This document shows positions 21,438-39,445 of a stretch of 39,445 nucleotides of DNA, piece by piece (position 1 is the first letter of the stretch; each line of letters begins with the position of its first letter). The notes beneath the pieces were generated by a model, which was not told where the DNA came from, made no database searches, and was given only the letters and a program-made list of their open reading frames with translations. This DNA is from Thermoproteota archaeon (GTDB lineage: Archaea > Korarchaeota > Korarchaeia > Korarchaeales > Korarchaeaceae), in assembly GCA_026986575.1 (NCBI GenBank), contig JALSOH010000007.1, positions 1 to 39,445 of the forward strand, read 5' to 3'. A program made the position numbers and the translations under genes.

Positions 21438-22049
21438 ATGGAACGACACTATACAATGAGAGAAGCTGCTAAGATCCTGGGCGTCTCAGTCAGAACGATC
21501 CAGCGATGGGATAAATCGGGAAAGATCAGGTGTATCCGCACTCCTGGAGGGAAAAGACGTGTTCCGGAGTCGGAGATAAGGAGGATACTCGGCCTGAGTG
21601 AGGAGCGAGTTGTGGTGGGCTACGCCAGGGTCTCCTCTAGATCGCAGAGGGACGACCTGGAGAGGCAGGTTCAGGCCATAAGGGAATACGCGAGCCAGCG
21701 GGGCTACGAGCTTGCCGAGGTGTTAACTGACGTCGGCTCTGGCCTGAACGAGCGGCGTAGAGGCTACCTGAGGCTGCTGGAAATGGTAGCTGAGCGCAGG
21801 GTCAGCAGGGTGATAGTCACTTACCCGGACAGGCTGACCAGGTTCGGCTTCTCGACGCTAAAATTCCTCTTCCAGGCGTTCGGCGCTGAGATAGAGGTGA
21901 TCAACGCCAGGGAGATGACGCCGAGGGAGGAGTTGGTGGAAGATCTCATAGCGATAGTCACGTCGTTCGCCAGCAGGCTCTACGGTAGGAGGAGCCACAG
22001 GTACAGGAGGCTCGTTCAGGGGGTGAGAAAGCTTGTCTCGGAGGAGTGA
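21438..22049 (+). CDS. tnpA: IS607 serine-recombinase transposase
   Basis: N-terminal MerR-like HTH ([28 protein letters not shown]), YARVSS catalytic Ser, [28 protein letters not shown]. Confidence 0.96.
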
Positions 22050-23193
22050 GGTTATCAAGAGCTATGCTGTGCCCGTAAAGGCTCCCAAAGACCTCATAGA
22101 TGCCTACCTAGAGGTCAAGAGGAAGGCGCTGGAGGCTGTGATAGCTTACGTATCCTACAGCAAGGGGAAGGCCAGGCTCCGGCTAAAAGCCGAGGAGAGG
22201 CGCGAGATCAGGAGTGAGCTGCTCAAGGATTGGCCGTACGCGAGCCACTACATCGACTCCGCCATCAACTCAGTCATAGGCCTAGTGAAGGGTTGGATAA
22301 AGCTCTACAACAGGGGTAAGGCGAAGAGACCACCGGAGATAACGAGGAGGATGGTCTACATCAAGAGCACGCTGTTCAGGATCAAGGAGAACAAGCTGAT
22401 CATCAGGATAGTAGCCAGGAGGCGCTACCTGGAGGTGGACCTGTCGAGGTTCGACTACCTGCCCAGGGACTACGACTCTATTGGGGGCCTGCTGCTAACA
22501 GATGACAGGCTCTACATCACATTCAAGCGCTCCTCCGAGCCTAAGGAAGTCAGGGGGTGGTCCGCATTCGACGTTAACGAGGCCAACGTGACGGAGGCGA
22601 GGGACGGATTCGGAGTGATCAGATACGACCTCAGAGAACTCTACCACATCCACAGGGTCTACGAGGAGAAGCGCCGGAGGATGCAGGCGCTCAGGAGGAC
22701 CCACCCTAAGCGCTCTAGGAGGCTCATGGAGAAGTATGGCAGGCGGGAACGCAATAGGGCCAGGGACTTCCTCCACAAGCTGACCACCGGGATAGTCAGG
22801 GAGCTGGCCGCGCTGAACTACGGGATCATCTTGGAGGATCTGAGCGGCATAAAGGAGAGGACTGCCAGGAGAGGGAGGGCAAGCAGGAGGATCAGGCGGA
22901 GGCTCAGCAAGTGGGACGCCCGCACGCTTCAGTCCATGCTGGCCTACAAGGCCAGGTGGCTGAGCCTTCCCGTGCGATTCGTGAACCCCGCCTACTCCTC
23001 CAGGACCTGCCCCGTGTGCTCAGCGCCTCTGAAGGCCTATCGGGGCAGGCTCATGCGGTGCGAGGGCTGCGGGCTGATCATCGACAGAGACGAAGCTGCA
23101 GCCCTCAACCTTCGGATGCGGGGCGCCCGGGGTTCCCCCGAGAGGGGCGGATCTACGGAGATGTGCCCAAGGGAGGCGTATGTCCACAAATGA
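22033..23193 (+). CDS. tnpB: RNA-guided endonuclease TnpB
   Basis: RuvC-I AFDVNE, RuvC-II IILEDL, Zn ribbon SRTCPVC..CEGC, Ruv[14 protein letters not shown]. Confidence 0.93.
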
Positions 23194-33135: not shown

Positions 33136-33390
33136 CTGGCACTGGGCCGTGCCCCACCCAAGACGATCAGGCCTCGGAGGTCTCATTTCTGCTTTCAGGT
33201 GCCCCTCCCTCTCAAGTCATATCGCTCTTAGAACGTTGAAACCCTCTCCTGTCACCTAGAATCGGGAAAACCCCATGAGGGCCTATGCCTCCGGGGCGTG
33301 CAACTTCGTCCCGTCAAAAGCGTGCAATCTCTTGGAATTTCCGGGAAACAGGATTAAATATTGGTCACTCTGGCCCAAAACGGTGGTGTA

Positions 33391-33990
33391 TTGTCCATAG
33401 GACTCGTGACCACGGTGGTAGGTTTACTGGTGGATTCGGTAGAGGTCGTGAGGCTCGGGAAGGAGCTGAAGGGCTACCTGTCGAGGAGGAAGAGTTCCGA
33501 TGAGAGGATAGACATACCAAGCGACCAGGAGGACAGGATGAAATCCCTCATCGGTGGTGTGATCGGATCAAAGCTGGTGGACGCTTTCATATCCTACGTG
33601 GAGAGCGGCGACCCAGGTCCGATGATGGAGGTCATAGATGGGGTGGAGAGGAGAAAGGAAGTGAGCGCATCCATCGACGTGATAGGCAGGAACCCTGAAG
33701 TCATGTACAGGAGGCAGTTCGGCAGGGATCCCGACTACATCTATAAGTACGTTCCAGATCAGGGTGGTTTGAGCGTAAAGGAATTCCCTCTGGTAGCGTT
33801 CAGCTCGGCGAAGTTTCTGGAATTGATAAACAACCTGCATCCTTCCGCCAAGAAGAGGCTCATCCTCTCGGCACCCGTGATCTTGGGATTTCAGATAGGT
33901 CAGCTCGTGGGAACCACGGCAAAGTTCTATCCCCTGCACCTAGTGAGGGAATCCGGTTACGCCGAGGTTAGCCCCGTCGTCAGGTACTGA
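33391..33990 (+). CDS. N-terminal hydrophobic helix + SAVED-like (single lobe) domain protein
   Basis: C-terminal RLILSAPVILGFQIGQLVG...FYPLHL..SGYAEV matches the SAVED C-terminal pattern (hL(F)xxPxxLxFxhG...Y). TTG 33391 is preferred because an ATTAAATA box lies at about 33353. 9 bp upstream of csx1. Confidence 0.6.
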   Translation: MSIGLVTTVVGLLVDSVEVVRLGKELKGYLSRRKSSDERIDIPSDQEDRMKSLIGGVIGSKLVDAFISYVESGDPGPMMEVIDGVERRKEVSASIDVIGRNPEVMYRRQFGRDPDYIYKYVPDQGGLSVKEFPLVAFSSAKFLELINNLHPSAKKRLILSAPVILGFQIGQLVGTTAKFYPLHLVRESGYAEVSPVVRY

Positions 33991-33999
33991 GGCGATGCC

Positions 34000-35963
34000 A
34001 TGTCCCACGTCCTAGTCCACGTGGCTGGGGACACCCTGCTGAGGGGATCGAGGAAACTCTACGAGGTTAGGGCGCCTGGACGAAAATCCATTCGGTTGAG
34101 GGCTTCATCCACCGCACTGCCCGTCTCCATGGAGGCGCTGGGCAGGGGGAAGGCCGACCCGGGCAAGCTCAAGATGATCGTTCCCCTCCCCCACTCCCTC
34201 GTAACCCACGCCGAGAAGTTTTGGAGGCTCCCAAGGATGGGGGAAGGAGTGGAGGAGTGGATCCTAGACGCGACCCGGAGACTAGTGGTCGAATTCCCGA
34301 GGCTACTCGTCAAGGACGTGAATGAGGAGTTACCGGGGGACTTCGGAGGCCTGCTTGACGGCTCTCCTCTATCTTGGCTAGGGTGGTCCAAGTCAGGGGC
34401 ACCTTCACCCTGCCTCTGGAGGACGGGACTGGCGTGAGGCTCAAATTCGAGAGAGGCGGGCCCTCCCACATATTCGCCGAGGTTTACCGATCTCTTAGGG
34501 AACTGGGAGATGTGGAGAGGGTGGTCTTCGATCTGAGTCAGGGGTGGAATCACCTGACCGTAATGGCCTACATAGGAGCACTGGCGTACGCTGAGGTGAA
34601 CTGGGTGAATCTGATCCCCCTGACCTCAATGCCCGTGTTGGTCCCATCGGGTAGACCCCCCACGAGGACACGCCCAAGCCCTGATCCATACCAGGAGGGG
34701 TTAGCAGGGGCAGCAGGCCGAGCCGTCGAGCTCCCAGTGGATTTCATGGATGTCGAGGAGGCTCAGGTGATTCACGGACTTGTTGTAACTATATCGAAGT
34801 TGCTGGCCCACAGCAGACTTAGCCCCGGCATGATAGCGGATATATGGGAGAATGTAGTGAGGAGGGAGTTCGATCGATACGGAAACCTAGAGAAGGGTAA
34901 GGAGCTCCTGAAATCCCTGATCAGGCTCAGGAAGGTCTCTTGCGCGCTCGATACCACCATGCTAACCTACCTGCATCACGCTTTGAGGAGCTTCAGCGAA
35001 TCCCTCCATTCTATTCGCGAGATGCTCAATTACCTCAAGGAGAGGATGGATAGAGGGGACTACGTGGAGCGCCTGAAGCCGAATCCGGATGCCTTCGCTG
35101 AGGGCTTTGATGAGATCGTGATAGAATACGAGCTTGAGCCTCCCCTGTCCTATCCGCTGGCGGATTCAGTGAGCTCCTTCGCCCTCAAGATAGGGATCGA
35201 TACGTTGAATCATCACTTGAGGAGGGATCACGCGTCCCTGAGGTTCGCTCAGGAGGTCAGGTCCCTCTACCGCTCGTTGGGCATGCACCCGAACGAGGTC
35301 TTGATAGCTAGAGAGCTAGCTATGATCGATAGGAGCGGCAACCTCAGAAGCGTAAACTGCATGGTGAGGGAGGCGCCGGGAGGCACAGCCTTGGGCTACA
35401 TGAGGTCGTACATCGAGGAAATGGCCTGCGAGATGGTTAAAAAGAGGATCAGAGGATCGGTCGCCTCCGTCCGTGATGTTTACCCGTTCGCGATTCTGGG
35501 CAGGAGGTGCCCGGATGTCGTGAGGGACGCCTATAGAGAGACCAGTAAGTTCGATAGGAGCTCAACCTTGGTGGATCTCCATGAGGAGAGCCTGAAATGG
35601 GAAATCTTCAGGACTAAAGCGGTAGATTTGATGGAAAACTCTTCGTGCAAGGACGATTGGTGGGTCAGGAACTTCCTCTCGGCGGATAAACTGATGAGGG
35701 GAAGAGACGCGGTCAGCCCGGAGGAGGTCTCTTCACTCCTCAGGAACCTTGCCGTCCATGTTGGCCTCCAGCACTTCTCCGTGAGGAATCTAGTGCCCGT
35801 CCTCGATCGTGGCGGCGTGATCGAGGATGTGGAGATCCACTATTACCATGAGCTCTTCGAGGGGCTGGAAGATCTGGCCAGTGGGAAGTTGAGGGGAAGG
35901 TTGGATGGGATGCCCGAGGACCTCATCAGGGAGATCGGGTGTCTATGCGATGTAGGGATCTGA
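34000..35963 (+). pseudogene. csx1: Csx1-like CARF-HEPN ribonuclease split by one frameshift (about 654 aa if repaired)
   Basis: ORF 34000 carries the CARF start (VLVHVAGD..YEV..LPHSL). ORF 34374 continues with VFDLSQGWNH (DxTHG variant) and HEPN RNLAVH (RX4H). One added base at about 34359 joins them (LLD-RLSSILARVV). Confidence 0.8.
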
Positions 35964-36306: not shown

Positions 36307-37068
36307 TCACTCCACAGCCTCCCTCATGGCCTCTCCTATAGCCCTACCCAGGTCTGTGGGTATGATCCTGCCTCCGGATACCTGTATAAGGCCTGAGAAC
36401 CTGAGGGCAGCTATGTAGTCTTCCCCAAGATCCTCAAGTTCCGACCTGCTGCCTCCCTCGCTGAGGATCCCCGCCACCCTCCTGACTATCGAATAAGGCA
36501 GTGGAAGCATGGGTATCCTCATCACGCTGTAGGTCAAGGGGGGATACATGAGGATCTGCAGCTCCCTATTCTCCCTGTAGTAACTGAGAGGATCGTCCGA
36601 TGAGGCGAGTTCCTCTATCTTCGGTCTCAGCCTCTCTAGCTCGATGTTAACCACCCTCACATCTGGCACGACCACATGGTAGATACCGGATACCGCAAGC
36701 ACCTGCCCCAGAAGGGCCACCTCCACCGAGACGCTCTTCCTCCCCCCTGAAATGAGTAGGTAGACTGGCTTCTCCAGTCCAGCTATCTCTGAAGCCGCTA
36801 TTCTCATGAAATCGAAGGCCACGTTCTCATTAACGATGTCCTCGTAGTCCAGAGTAAGGCTAACCACCTTGGCCTTGGGATACCTGTCCTTCACGGCTGC
36901 CTCAACTAGCCTGGCGCCTTCCTGAACGCGTTTGTCCTTTGTAAGGATCAGTTCCACGGTTTTTGGCTTCATGTTGTACTGCCAGTCCAGGTACTGGATC
37001 AGCTCTGTAACGATGGGTGGGCTCAGGCCGAGAGGGGCTAGCAGGGAGTAATCACTGAAGTAACGCAT
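36307..37068 (-). CDS. CARF + winged-helix protein, Csx14/Crn1 (Sso2081-like) ring-nuclease family
   Basis: LAPLGLSPPIVTE, LILTKD, YEDI, LLISGGRKSV, IYHV; C-terminal wHTH-like LRFSGLIQVSGGRIIPTDLG. Confidence 0.8.
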   Translation of the reverse strand: MRYFSDYSLLAPLGLSPPIVTELIQYLDWQYNMKPKTVELILTKDKRVQEGARLVEAAVKDRYPKAKVVSLTLDYEDIVNENVAFDFMRIAASEIAGLEKPVYLLISGGRKSVSVEVALLGQVLAVSGIYHVVVPDVRVVNIELERLRPKIEELASSDDPLSYYRENRELQILMYPPLTYSVMRIPMLPLPYSIVRRVAGILSEGGSRSELEDLGEDYIAALRFSGLIQVSGGRIIPTDLGRAIGEAMREAVE

Positions 37069-37375: not shown

Positions 37376-38131
37376 ATGGCGGAGACTCACGTGATCACAT
37401 GCGGCATCAGTCTCCTCATGAACACTATCAGGTCGACTGAGGAGGACATTCTCTCCTCGATACCAGAAGAAAAGCTCCGCGAACTCTCCAACCCCAGAAG
37501 TCTATCAGAAGCACTAAAGTCCCTCACTGGAGACGAGAGGAGGGCTCTCGAGGAGGCGATGCTCTCCAACCTGAGAAGGGATCCGAGGAGAGCCAGCGCT
37601 GAGATGAATGCCTTCCTCGGGTATATAAACGAGTACTCCACGGAGGTTAGGGATCTACACCTCTTAGTCTCCGACACCGACGCCGGGAAGCTAGTAGCGA
37701 AGATTCTCGACGAATACCTTACAGAGAGTGGGTACAACGTCTCCAAGCATGTGGTCGCTGGCTTCGGCTCCGAGGACTTCGACGCTGCTCTCAAGGAGCT
37801 GAAGGAGGTGGTGGGATCCATAGTGGGGAGATCGGGCGATGTGGTCCTCAACCTCACCGGTGGATTCAAGGCGGAGATAGCCGCATTATCGGTTCTTGCC
37901 GCTGAAAGCGGTCTCAGAGCGTACTACATACATGAGGCCGCCAAGAAGATCGTGATCTTGCCGACGGCCAGCCAGCTGAAGGTGAAGGTTACCAAGTGGG
38001 AGAAGGCCCTAGCCATCCTCACGGCCATCCTGAGCTTCCCGATCGACTCGTTACTCGGCTTCCCCCTCTTCGTAGTAGCTGAAATTGCAATATTCGTGCC
38101 GACCCTCTGGATAATACTGAAGAAGGCCTGA
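37376..38131 (+). CDS. APE2256/Sso1393-family CARF protein with C-terminal hydrophobic (about 2 TM) hairpin
   Basis: VITCGISLLMN, SAEMNA, LLVSDTDAG, LNLTGGFKAE, YYIHE, then ALAILTAILSFPIDSLLGFPLFVVAEIAIFVPTLWIILKKA. Confidence 0.85.
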   Translation: MAETHVITCGISLLMNTIRSTEEDILSSIPEEKLRELSNPRSLSEALKSLTGDERRALEEAMLSNLRRDPRRASAEMNAFLGYINEYSTEVRDLHLLVSDTDAGKLVAKILDEYLTESGYNVSKHVVAGFGSEDFDAALKELKEVVGSIVGRSGDVVLNLTGGFKAEIAALSVLAAESGLRAYYIHEAAKKIVILPTASQLKVKVTKWEKALAILTAILSFPIDSLLGFPLFVVAEIAIFVPTLWIILKKA

Positions 38132-38769: not shown

Positions 38770-39135
38770 CCTATTGCAGGAGAAGGGAAGCTCAAGAGGG
38801 CGTCGAAAGGGAAGGACATTAATGCACCAACTACCGCCTTCTCGTGCCTGAAGAGTCGGATCTTAGGTCCCATCTCCGGCAGGAGCTTCACCACCTCTTG
38901 AGTCCCTCGTGTATGTAGCAGGCATTCAAGTCGCTTCCAACAGCGATGGCACCCATGGCTGCCTCCTCCGTTTGAGGCCGTCCGTCAGGTCCAGTTTGAA
39001 CTCTCCCTTCTCAGGCTTACTATCCTCCTCAGGAGTTTCTTTATCCTGTTTCACCGCTCATTTGTGGTTCTGGGAATCGAATCCAAGGTCCTTCCTAATC
39101 TCCACTCCATCTTCGCCCATCAGCCCTGTCCATGT
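38770..39135 (-). pseudogene. Decayed paralogue of the CARF-TM gene (37376..38131)
   Basis: Minus-strand fragments GFDSQN, LDLTDGLK, LNACYIHE and VVKLLP..KIRLFRHEKAVVGALMSFPFDALLSFP align with GFGSED, LNLTGGFK, LRAYYIHE and IVILP..KVKVTKWEKALAILTAILSFPIDSLLGFP; contains stops and frameshifts. Confidence 0.75.
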
Positions 39136-39188
39136 CGACTACGGACCCTCGGGAAAGAATTTATTACCCTCATTCCTATCTTTACTCG

Positions 39189-39445
39189 ATGTCTCTAATA
39201 GAGGAACTCTCGAAAGAGCTTGAGGCACATCCCGAACTTGCCAAGAGTATAGCTAAGAAGCTAATCGAGTATATAGAGCCAGAGCTAAGTCTGGCCTATC
39301 AGATTTCCAAAATGGTCGATCAGATAACCAAATTCGTCGAAGAGCAGACCAAGATCTGGCAGGAGATCAAGGCGATCAAGGAGGAGATCCAGAAGATATG
39401 GGAGGAGATAAAGGAGCTGAAGGAGGAGCAGACGAGGCTGAAGGA
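39189..39445 (+). CDS. Coiled-coil heptad-repeat protein, truncated by the window end (archaeal DUF3782/PD-(D/E)XK-associated type)
   Basis: MSLIEELSKELEAHPELAK...EEQTKIWQEIKAIKEEIQKIWEEIKELKEEQTRLK. Confidence 0.7.
   Translation, partial: MSLIEELSKELEAHPELAKSIAKKLIEYIEPELSLAYQISKMVDQITKFVEEQTKIWQEIKAIKEEIQKIWEEIKELKEEQTRLK

Follow-up and report, generated by a model that had tools for sequence, protein, structure and literature searches.

SAVED domains link type III CRISPR and CBASS (an antiphage signaling system based on cyclic oligonucleotides) immunity, and the origin of their two-lobed sensor is debated. Here we report a gene of a Thermoproteota archaeon (Korarchaeaceae; GenBank assembly GCA_026986575.1) that encodes a protein of 199 amino acids (aa), modeled with a single SAVED-type lobe and assigned by sequence to the SAVED4 type. 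The window analyzed is the whole contig JALSOH010000007.1, a stretch of archaeal chromosome of 39,445 nucleotides (nt). The one-lobe SAVED gene is located on its forward strand (positions 33391-33990) and belongs to a cluster of genes for cyclic oligoadenylate (cOA) sensors at 33.4-38.1 kb, which also comprises a csx1-like, a CARF5/Csx14-like, and a CARF7 gene.

The reading frame starts with a TTG codon (33391) and ends with a TGA stop codon (33988-33990); the aligned homologs start with an ATG that matches this TTG. A longer frame from an alternative TTG at 33361 is unlikely because the homologs begin at the aligned ATG and because 33361 is situated inside a conserved TTAAAT-like box. This box (TTAAATAT; 33354-33361, forward strand), read directly from the sequence about 30 nt 5' of the start codon, resembles an archaeal TATA box, and its TTA.A core is invariant in all six aligned upstream regions (window and loci L001, L002, L003, L004, and L021); it would be the putative promoter of the gene. 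A second conserved motif, GAAAT, is located about 20 nt further 5' at the same six loci (region 33291-33400 of the window) and may be a regulator site.

Close homologs of the 199-aa protein were recovered in a word-indexed search as eight clusters (197-199 aa, 61-99% identity), and a phmmer search of 1.84 billion representatives yielded 15 proteins at E ≤ 1e-3, with lengths of 71-233 aa and an identity to the query of down to 27%. The family alignment consists of 18 long-form members, the most distant of which share 22% identity with the window protein; a separate short-form set comprises 22 sequences of about 112 aa. The codons of the window gene differ from those of the L001 homolog at 45 synonymous and 12 amino-acid-changing sites, and from those of the L021 homolog at 41 and 11 sites, respectively. 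In an independent sequencing run, the contigs that carry the gene show six single-base variants and neither insertions nor deletions; by codon arithmetic, five of the variants are synonymous and one is V81I. Relatives are present in 9 of the 43 genomes of the phylum (source genome counted), including 7 of the 20 other genomes of the genus. As judged from these comparisons, the gene is real, conserved, and under purifying selection. The phmmer search, which had no length filter, returned no fused or longer form (>233 aa) among its 15 proteins, and no relative was recovered when proteins with lengths of 409-2000 aa were searched with a profile, a result of little weight. Viral contigs (searched for both the long and the short form), phage records, and plasmid records held no relative within the range of the pattern scans, which reach close relatives only.

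The SAVED-type lobe and its predicted homodimer

The window protein alone had no match in Pfam or NCBIfam. It was matched by the PADLOC profile PDLC02008 ('SAVED4--SAVED'; E 7e-8), which also matched 18/18 members of the family (best E 1.4e-39) and has only 104 positions, the size of one lobe. The 'SAVED4' label reportedly comes from a 2020 paper on the classification of CARF and SAVED domains. Further PADLOC matches among the 18 members were to SAVED4--SAVED_TM (15 members), SAVED4--SAVED_LON_TM (11), and CRISPR-Lon (7), and the Pfam family SAVED (PF18145) was matched by nine of them (best E 2.7e-9). When the family profile was compared with all PDB sequences, the single convincing match was 9r8s (AcrIII-2, a viral stand-alone SAVED protein of 243 aa; E 5.7e-9), with the same query region aligning to both AcrIII-2 lobes (chain positions 59-99 and 162-225). 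The profile of the short-form relatives matches AcrIII-2 and CalpL.

An AlphaFold2 model was obtained from the 18-row alignment (predicted local distance difference test score, pLDDT, 82.9; predicted template modeling score, pTM, 0.81), and its secondary structure was assigned with DSSP. The N-terminal half contains five helices (residues 2-18, 26-35, 44-53, 57-72, and 76-85). They are followed by a strand (90-96), a helix (102-110), a strand (116-119), a helix (129-149), a strand (154-159), a helix (163-173), and two strands (182-186 and 189-193), which together form a lobe of five strands and three helices in the order b-a-b-a-b-a-b-b (residues 88-199; 33652-33987, forward strand). A Foldseek search against the PDB gave nothing at E ≤ 1e-3; its top rows were mostly SAVED structures (E 0.06-0.5), and a second fold search agrees. 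The top 13 structural matches of the model were all C-terminal lobes of SAVED domains (13/13), and the matches to such lobes start at model residues 49-53. In published work, each lobe of AcrIII-2 (9r8s) consists of a five-stranded sheet and three helices, and the subdomains of SAVED and Csx15 have one alpha-beta unit fewer than CARF (10.64898/2026.10.26.761840); the topology of the modeled lobe agrees with both descriptions.

In the model, residues 88-199 are therefore one SAVED-type lobe with the corresponding topology, and the chain has this lobe in place of the two fused lobes of a SAVED domain. An ordinary SAVED domain with a degenerate first lobe was considered and rejected: the N-terminal half is not a first lobe because it consists entirely of helices, with no strands in the model. 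The sequence-only reading had described an open reading frame (ORF) at the same coordinates with an N-terminal hydrophobic helix, a helical linker, and a likeness to one SAVED lobe in the last 110 or so residues; the ORF is read directly from the sequence, the helices recur in the model (2-18 and 44-85), and the likeness is borne out by the profile matches (PDLC02008, PF18145, 9r8s), the AlphaFold2 model, and the fold searches. It had also named beforehand two outcomes that would speak against it, a lack of any SAVED likeness and an N-terminal half that forms the first lobe; the fold matches and the all-helical N-terminus are the opposite of both.

The one-lobe SAVED proteins of about 112 aa, likewise represented by PDLC02008, share with the window family the motifs [DE]-x-x-[GSA]-R after strand 1, P-x-x-L-x-F-x-x-G-Q-x-x-G, and Y-x-x-[VI]-P...R; the first 85-90 residues and H150, nearly invariant in the window family, are missing from them. 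At locus L023 (9224-9592, reverse strand), a single SAVED lobe makes up the whole of a 122-aa protein (PDLC02008, E 4.7e-23; positions 80-184 of 190 of the Pfam SAVED model), which is encoded directly 5' of a 547-aa AAA+ ATPase (IetA/TRIP13-like). Its family comprises 47 clusters, mostly of about 112 aa.

Two full-length copies of the window protein were modeled together and yielded an ipSAE (interaction prediction score from aligned errors) of 0.79 in 3/3 runs, whereas the best of the three controls reached 0.00. The contacts in the dimer runs agreed by at least 98%, and the pLDDT of the partner was 87. In the calibration of the tool, the mark was reached by 20 of 30 proteins solved as pairs and by 1 of 23 solved as single chains, counts that are only rough here because our own 18-row alignment was used. 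The predicted interface is symmetric and involves residues 129-137, 157-175, 181-185, and 191-198. Residues 163, 166, 170, and 171 each lie opposite their own copy, which places the 2-fold axis of the model through helix 163-173, and this helix bears the motif that is conserved best in the family, P162...G170-Q171...G174 (GFQxGQLxG). CalpL has a pseudo-2-fold axis between two equivalent helices, and the helix at that axis corresponds to helix 163-173 of the window protein. The single-lobe protein is thus predicted to homodimerize about a true 2-fold axis at helix 163-173. That a single-lobe version would have to homodimerize had already been proposed from the sequence, and the modeling supports it.

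N-terminal module and conserved residues

The N-terminal helix (residues 2-18, SIGLVTTVVGLLVDSVEVV; 33394-33444, forward strand), recognized in the AlphaFold2 model and by its hydropathy, is hydrophobic/amphipathic and carries D15 and E18. Both residues are invariant in 8/8 close homologs; across the family, 13 of the 18 members have D or E in the D15 column, and the other 5 have a gap. The helix is followed by a polybasic segment, identified by its net charge (residues 21-35, RLGKELKGYLSRRKS; 33451-33495, forward strand); the net charge over the 20 residues after the helix is +3 to +9 in 17/18 members. A helical linker (residues 44-85; 33520-33645, forward strand), which packs on the lobe in the model, includes the invariant G56 and G59 (GGxIGSKL; 18/18 members).

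The linker is modeled with a pLDDT of 84-93 in the full-length protein, and residues 1-88 folded alone reach a pLDDT of only 61.6 and a pTM of 0.38. The N-terminal module appears to be an add-on because the relatives of about 112 aa do without it, and the true add-on, as judged from the models, is approximately residues 1-45, because residues 44-88 are confident in the full-length model and the matches to the SAVED C-terminal lobe fold begin at about residue 50. The N-terminal part of the protein did not match EAD7 (an effector-associated domain, EAD) or any other Pfam family in any of the 18 members at E values up to 1.

Eight residues are invariant in 18/18 members (G56, G59, R100, Y116, P162, G170, G174, and Y190), and A136, H150, and Q171 are present in 17. 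R100 is located after strand 1, on the 'head' face of the lobe, and has an equivalent, R22, in 22/22 short-form sequences. On the 'tail' face, 13 of the 18 long-form members have R or K in column 198, close to the C-terminus, and the short-form counterpart R117 is present in 22/22. In the hidden Markov model alignment, this arginine (198/R117) falls within one position of R96 of AcrIII-2, a residue placed likewise after the last strand and described as essential for activity. In the dimer model, R198 lies inside the interface and close to the axis.

The catalytic histidine of the related proteins is on the 'head' surface: H396 in CalpL, H128 in AcrIII-2 (H128A abolishes activity), and H8 in Csx15 (10.64898/2026.10.26.761840), more precisely H8 in HaCsx15 and CsCsx15 and H11 in PfCsx15. 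A histidine in the loop after strand 1 was found in 0/18 long-form and 0/22 short-form sequences, with the position matched by topology and not by superposition; the invariant arginine is there instead. The column aligned with S194 of AcrIII-2 holds S in seven, A in six, and V in five members. Of the composite active site of the SAVED4 type, with one face bearing His and Ser and the opposite face Arg/Lys, the family has a candidate Arg at column 198 and lacks the canonical His, for which H150 could substitute. The basic residues on both faces would fit a ligand sandwiched between stacked dimers, by analogy with AcrIII-2, CalpL, and Csx15, for which binding of the ligand between stacked units has been shown (10.64898/2026.01.21.700848; 10.64898/2026.10.26.761840).

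Genomic neighborhood

The one-lobe SAVED gene ends 9 nt 5' of the ATG (34000) of a csx1-like gene that is frameshifted. Its 5' part (34000-34437, forward strand), delimited by a tblastn search with the intact 655-aa Csx1 of L021, corresponds to reference residues 1-126, runs out of frame thereafter, and opens with the N-terminal CARF strand MSHVLVHVAGD. The 3' part (34374-35963, forward strand; PADLOC, tblastn) corresponds to reference residues 124-655 and includes the CARF core and a HEPN-like RNLAVH motif; it matches PADLOC Csx1 (E 4.8e-6) and Csm6 (E 5.9e-5) and, weakly, Pfam Csx1_CARF (E 0.031). DNA alignment with L021 (intact) and L001 attributes the frameshift to a 2-nt insertion at approximately 34365-34371 (forward strand). 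Contig X2 of the independent run spans 34185-34441 with no differences or gaps; the insertion is therefore not private to one assembly. In L001, csx1 is also broken, at sites that differ from that in the window.

A gene for a CARF5/Csx14-like protein follows on the reverse strand (36307-37068; PADLOC CARF5--CARF, E 1.3e-65; Pfam Cas_NE0113, E 2.8e-16; NCBIfam Csx14, E 8.5e-22, below cut-off); its product also matches the ring nuclease Crn1 weakly (E 1.1e-7, again below cut-off). The CARF7 protein (Cas_APE2256; 37376-38131, forward strand; PADLOC CARF7--CARF, E 2.9e-41; Pfam, E 3.4e-29) has hydrophobic C-terminal segments and is likely membrane-bound. There are no type III effector genes within the 39,445-nt window; the source genome encodes a full-length Cas10 on another contig (L005, contig 10) and two Cas10 fragments at contig ends. 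One of these fragments (L007, contig 3) reads GGDQ at the GGDD motif, and the Cas10 beside the homolog in L004 reads SAGDE.

The synteny of the window is shared by L001 and L021, where csx1 is located 9-10 nt downstream of the one-lobe SAVED gene. At the other loci, the homolog has csx3 upstream (L003), adjoins the genes for Cmr1, Cas10, Cmr3, Cmr4, and Cmr5 (L004), or is situated on a short contig with mad2 and PDC-S01 (L002). In L022, a type I-A locus with csa3 nearby, it is positioned between cas6 and a weakly cas6-like ORF followed by cas4-cas1-cas2. That ORF (L022:2032-2619) encodes 195 aa, starts 10 nt 3' of the homolog, and matches only Cas6, weakly (Pfam E 0.0057). In L026, which represents a distant member, a CARF5 gene precedes the homolog, and cas4-cas1 overlaps with it; this type III locus also contains Csm3/Cas7 and two additional CARF genes. 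The family is therefore associated with CRISPR loci that contain cOA-sensor genes and not with csx1 specifically, because other homologs adjoin csx3, a cmr operon, or cas4-cas1-cas2. The coupling to csx1 assumed in the sequence-only reading holds for the 9-nt gap and the synteny of the window, L001, and L021; it does not extend to the loci without csx1, and the csx1 of the window is itself frameshifted.

The remainder of the contig carries a CRISPR array, the his operon, and an IS607/TnpB element. The array is long, extends from the contig end (1-3800) with a repeat unit of about 30 nt (GATTCTAGCCTACCTAGAAGGGATTGAAAC), and has no adjoining cas genes in the window. The mobile element (21438-23193) consists of a gene for an IS607-family serine transposase followed by a tnpB gene. 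At the other end of the contig, an open-ended ORF (39132-39443) contains 21-nt tandem repeats and encodes a Glu/Lys-rich, coiled-coil-like product.

Relation to known systems and possible function

By sequence and fold, the window protein is closest to the SAVED4 clade, which includes CalpL (Lon-SAVED; PDB 7qda, 8b0r, and 9eyj), the viral AcrIII-2 (9r8s), and the cellular Crn5. All three are linked to type III CRISPR and bind cyclic tetra-adenylate (cA4); AcrIII-2 and Crn5, described in 2025, are stand-alone, two-lobed SAVED ring nucleases. In contrast to the members of this clade, the window protein contains a single lobe in each chain, carries an additional helical module at its N-terminus, and has no counterpart of CalpL H396/AcrIII-2 H128; unlike CalpL, it has no Lon protease domain.

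Csx15 is a one-lobe relative of SAVED that acts as a cA4 ring nuclease or sponge; its dimers stack around cA4, some only sequester the ligand, and it often co-occurs with Crn1 (10.64898/2026.01.21.700848). Some Csx15 proteins are fused to N-terminal transmembrane helices, and EAD-Csx15 fusions have been described as well (10.64898/2026.10.26.761840). The window protein resembles Csx15, which is compared here by description only, in its single five-stranded Rossmann-like lobe, in a homodimer (predicted in our case) that equals one SAVED monomer, and in its association with type III systems; it differs in having no counterpart of the catalytic H8. The solved relatives recovered were all SAVED4 proteins. 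No chain named Csx15 occurred among the PDB profile matches at E values up to 10 or in the fold lists, and no family of that name among the PADLOC rows listed for the window protein and its family, the presence of Csx15 in those libraries and in PADLOC being unconfirmed. The family reported here is already catalogued (PADLOC 'SAVED4--SAVED'), and the concept of a one-lobe, homodimeric, filament-forming protein has been published for Csx15 in 2026. The idea of a CARF/SAVED intermediate, advanced in the sequence-only reading, is therefore sound but no longer new. In a full-text literature search, which did not cover the Csx15 family tables, neither one-lobe proteins of the SAVED4 lineage nor the N-terminal module came up as the subject of a paper.

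In overall layout, the window protein (199 aa) is similar to Cam1 (206 aa), which consists of an N-terminal transmembrane helix of 24 residues with a conserved Asp (D17), a short linker, and a dimerizing CARF sensor (PMC10808066). They share the N-terminal helix with its conserved acidic residue, the linker, and the C-terminal dimerizing sensor, the dimer being a prediction in the present case. The differences are a SAVED-type lobe in place of CARF, a helix that is shorter and more charged than that of Cam1, and a membrane location that is hypothetical for the window protein.

The interpretation that we tentatively favor, and regard as possible rather than probable, is that the protein is a homodimer that binds cA4, stacks when the ligand is bound, and exerts its effect at the membrane via its N-terminal helix. 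The gene product would be a cOA sensor of the SAVED4 (CalpL/AcrIII-2) lineage, tied to type III CRISPR and equipped with one SAVED-type lobe. Two copies are predicted to pair via helix 163-173 and to rebuild, with exact 2-fold symmetry, what a SAVED domain achieves with two fused lobes. R100 on the head and R198 on the tail suggest that stacked dimers enclose the ligand, probably cA4, in the way known from CalpL, AcrIII-2, and Csx15. The family would be expected to bind its ligand and polymerize rather than cleave it fast, because the catalytic histidine of these proteins is absent. The output would then be provided by the N-terminal module, with its short hydrophobic/amphipathic helix, conserved acidic residue, and polybasic stretch. 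In the least secure step of this mechanism, ligand-driven stacking would cluster the N-terminal helices at the cytoplasmic membrane and create a minimal Cam1-type effector or a membrane-tethered sensor.

Several observations weigh against this interpretation. The Kyte-Doolittle mean of the helix over 19 residues is 1.82, compared with 1.76 for a buried segment of the soluble CARF5 neighbor and 2.26 for the C-terminal segment (residue 230) of the CARF7 neighbor, and its position-independent hydrophobicity sums, which are indicative only, are +4 to +13. The longest uncharged run in the helix is 14 residues, and in distant members it is 10 or fewer; PADLOC places the family in 'SAVED' and not in 'SAVED_TM'; and with a pLDDT of 71-77 for residues 1-30 in the full-length model, the helix may do no more than pack against the protein. 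By these sequence measures, it lacks the length and has too much charge for a convincing transmembrane helix and can be considered a weak candidate. The membrane effector proposed in the sequence-only reading is thus poorly served by the helix as a membrane span; its stronger side is the conserved acidic residue and the polybasic stretch, which resemble Cam1. Moreover, the dimer prediction, made with our own alignment, may partly reflect likeness to solved SAVED/CARF structures. The full-length Cas10 of the source genome also reads SAGDE where GGDD is expected; cOA synthesis in this genome is therefore only assumed. Finally, H150, which is conserved in 17/18 members, could be a non-canonical catalytic residue, which would favor a ring nuclease.

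A role as cOA sink is nearly as likely as the membrane-acting sensor. The protein would then be a sponge or a slow ring nuclease like Csx15, Crn5, and AcrIII-2: its dimers would stack around cA4 in a head-to-tail manner and either sequester it or cleave it slowly, which would damp Csx1 and the remaining CARF effectors encoded at the locus, with the N-terminal helices only tuning oligomerization or location. The precedents are close, as one-lobe Csx15 dimers stack around cA4 and in some cases merely sequester it, and the stand-alone SAVED proteins AcrIII-2 and Crn5 are ring nucleases. The position of the gene just 5' of csx1, or beside the ring nuclease gene csx3 in L003, would suit a damping function, as would the Crn1/Csx14-like CARF5 gene 2.3 kb away, given the frequent pairing of Csx15 with Crn1; the conserved Arg on both faces and H150 in 17/18 members point in the same direction. 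However, the loop after strand 1 has no histidine in either form of the family (0/18 and 0/22), while H128A kills the activity of AcrIII-2, and the column of its S194 is variable, so that the ring nuclease considered in the sequence-only reading has lost ground. A soluble sink also needs no hydrophobic/polybasic module, and the 112-aa relatives do without it. There is no sign of use as an anti-CRISPR, as no copy was found in the viral and plasmid collections with searches of limited reach.

We consider it unlikely that the protein is an adaptor or regulatory subunit, in which the one-lobe dimer senses cOA and the helical N-terminus recruits or gates a partner (Csx1, an adaptation protein, or a membrane protein), much like the EADs fused to one-lobe SAVED or Csx15. 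A 207-aa cluster of the ESM Atlas that combines EAD7 and SAVED is a structural neighbor of the lobe, EAD-Csx15 fusions are on record (10.64898/2026.10.26.761840), and the gene is tightly spaced from or overlaps with the next one in the window, L021, and L026. Nevertheless, the N-terminal part matches neither EAD7 nor another Pfam family (0/18 members at E up to 1), it folds without confidence when modeled alone (residues 1-88), the neighboring gene varies between loci, and csx1 is broken in two of the three genomes of the synteny group while the one-lobe SAVED gene is intact. It is most improbable that the gene is a relic left by the decay of a two-lobed SAVED effector, a product of fission or truncation with no function of its own. 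The lobe is indeed most like the C-terminal lobe of SAVED4 proteins and the adjoining csx1 is a pseudogene; but the gene keeps its full length down to 22-30% identity, its synonymous changes exceed the amino-acid changes, five of the six strain variants in the independent run are synonymous by codon arithmetic, it has its own conserved promoter-like box, and it is carried by 9 of the 43 genomes of the phylum.

A further-reaching proposal, which we regard as rather doubtful, is that these are the first one-lobe members of the true SAVED4/CalpL lineage and, independently of Csx15, a living counterpart of the single-lobe homodimer that gave rise to two-lobed SAVED domains. The long form would then be a new minimal effector that senses cA4 and does not cleave it; its ligand-driven filament, assembled head to tail, would gather the short, cationic, and amphipathic N-terminal helices into bundles and thereby damage or depolarize the membrane without a true transmembrane domain.

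The 2026 work on Csx15 argues for a one-lobe, filament-forming ancestor of SAVED. The family described here adds a second, independent set of one-lobe proteins, placed inside the SAVED4 lineage by sequence. It can serve to distinguish single lobes as ancestors from single lobes as fission products and to assess the effect of exact 2-fold symmetry on ligand choice. If the N-terminal helix is an output device, few known cOA-activated effectors would be as small as these proteins; if they are sinks, they would represent another family of regulators for archaeal type III systems.

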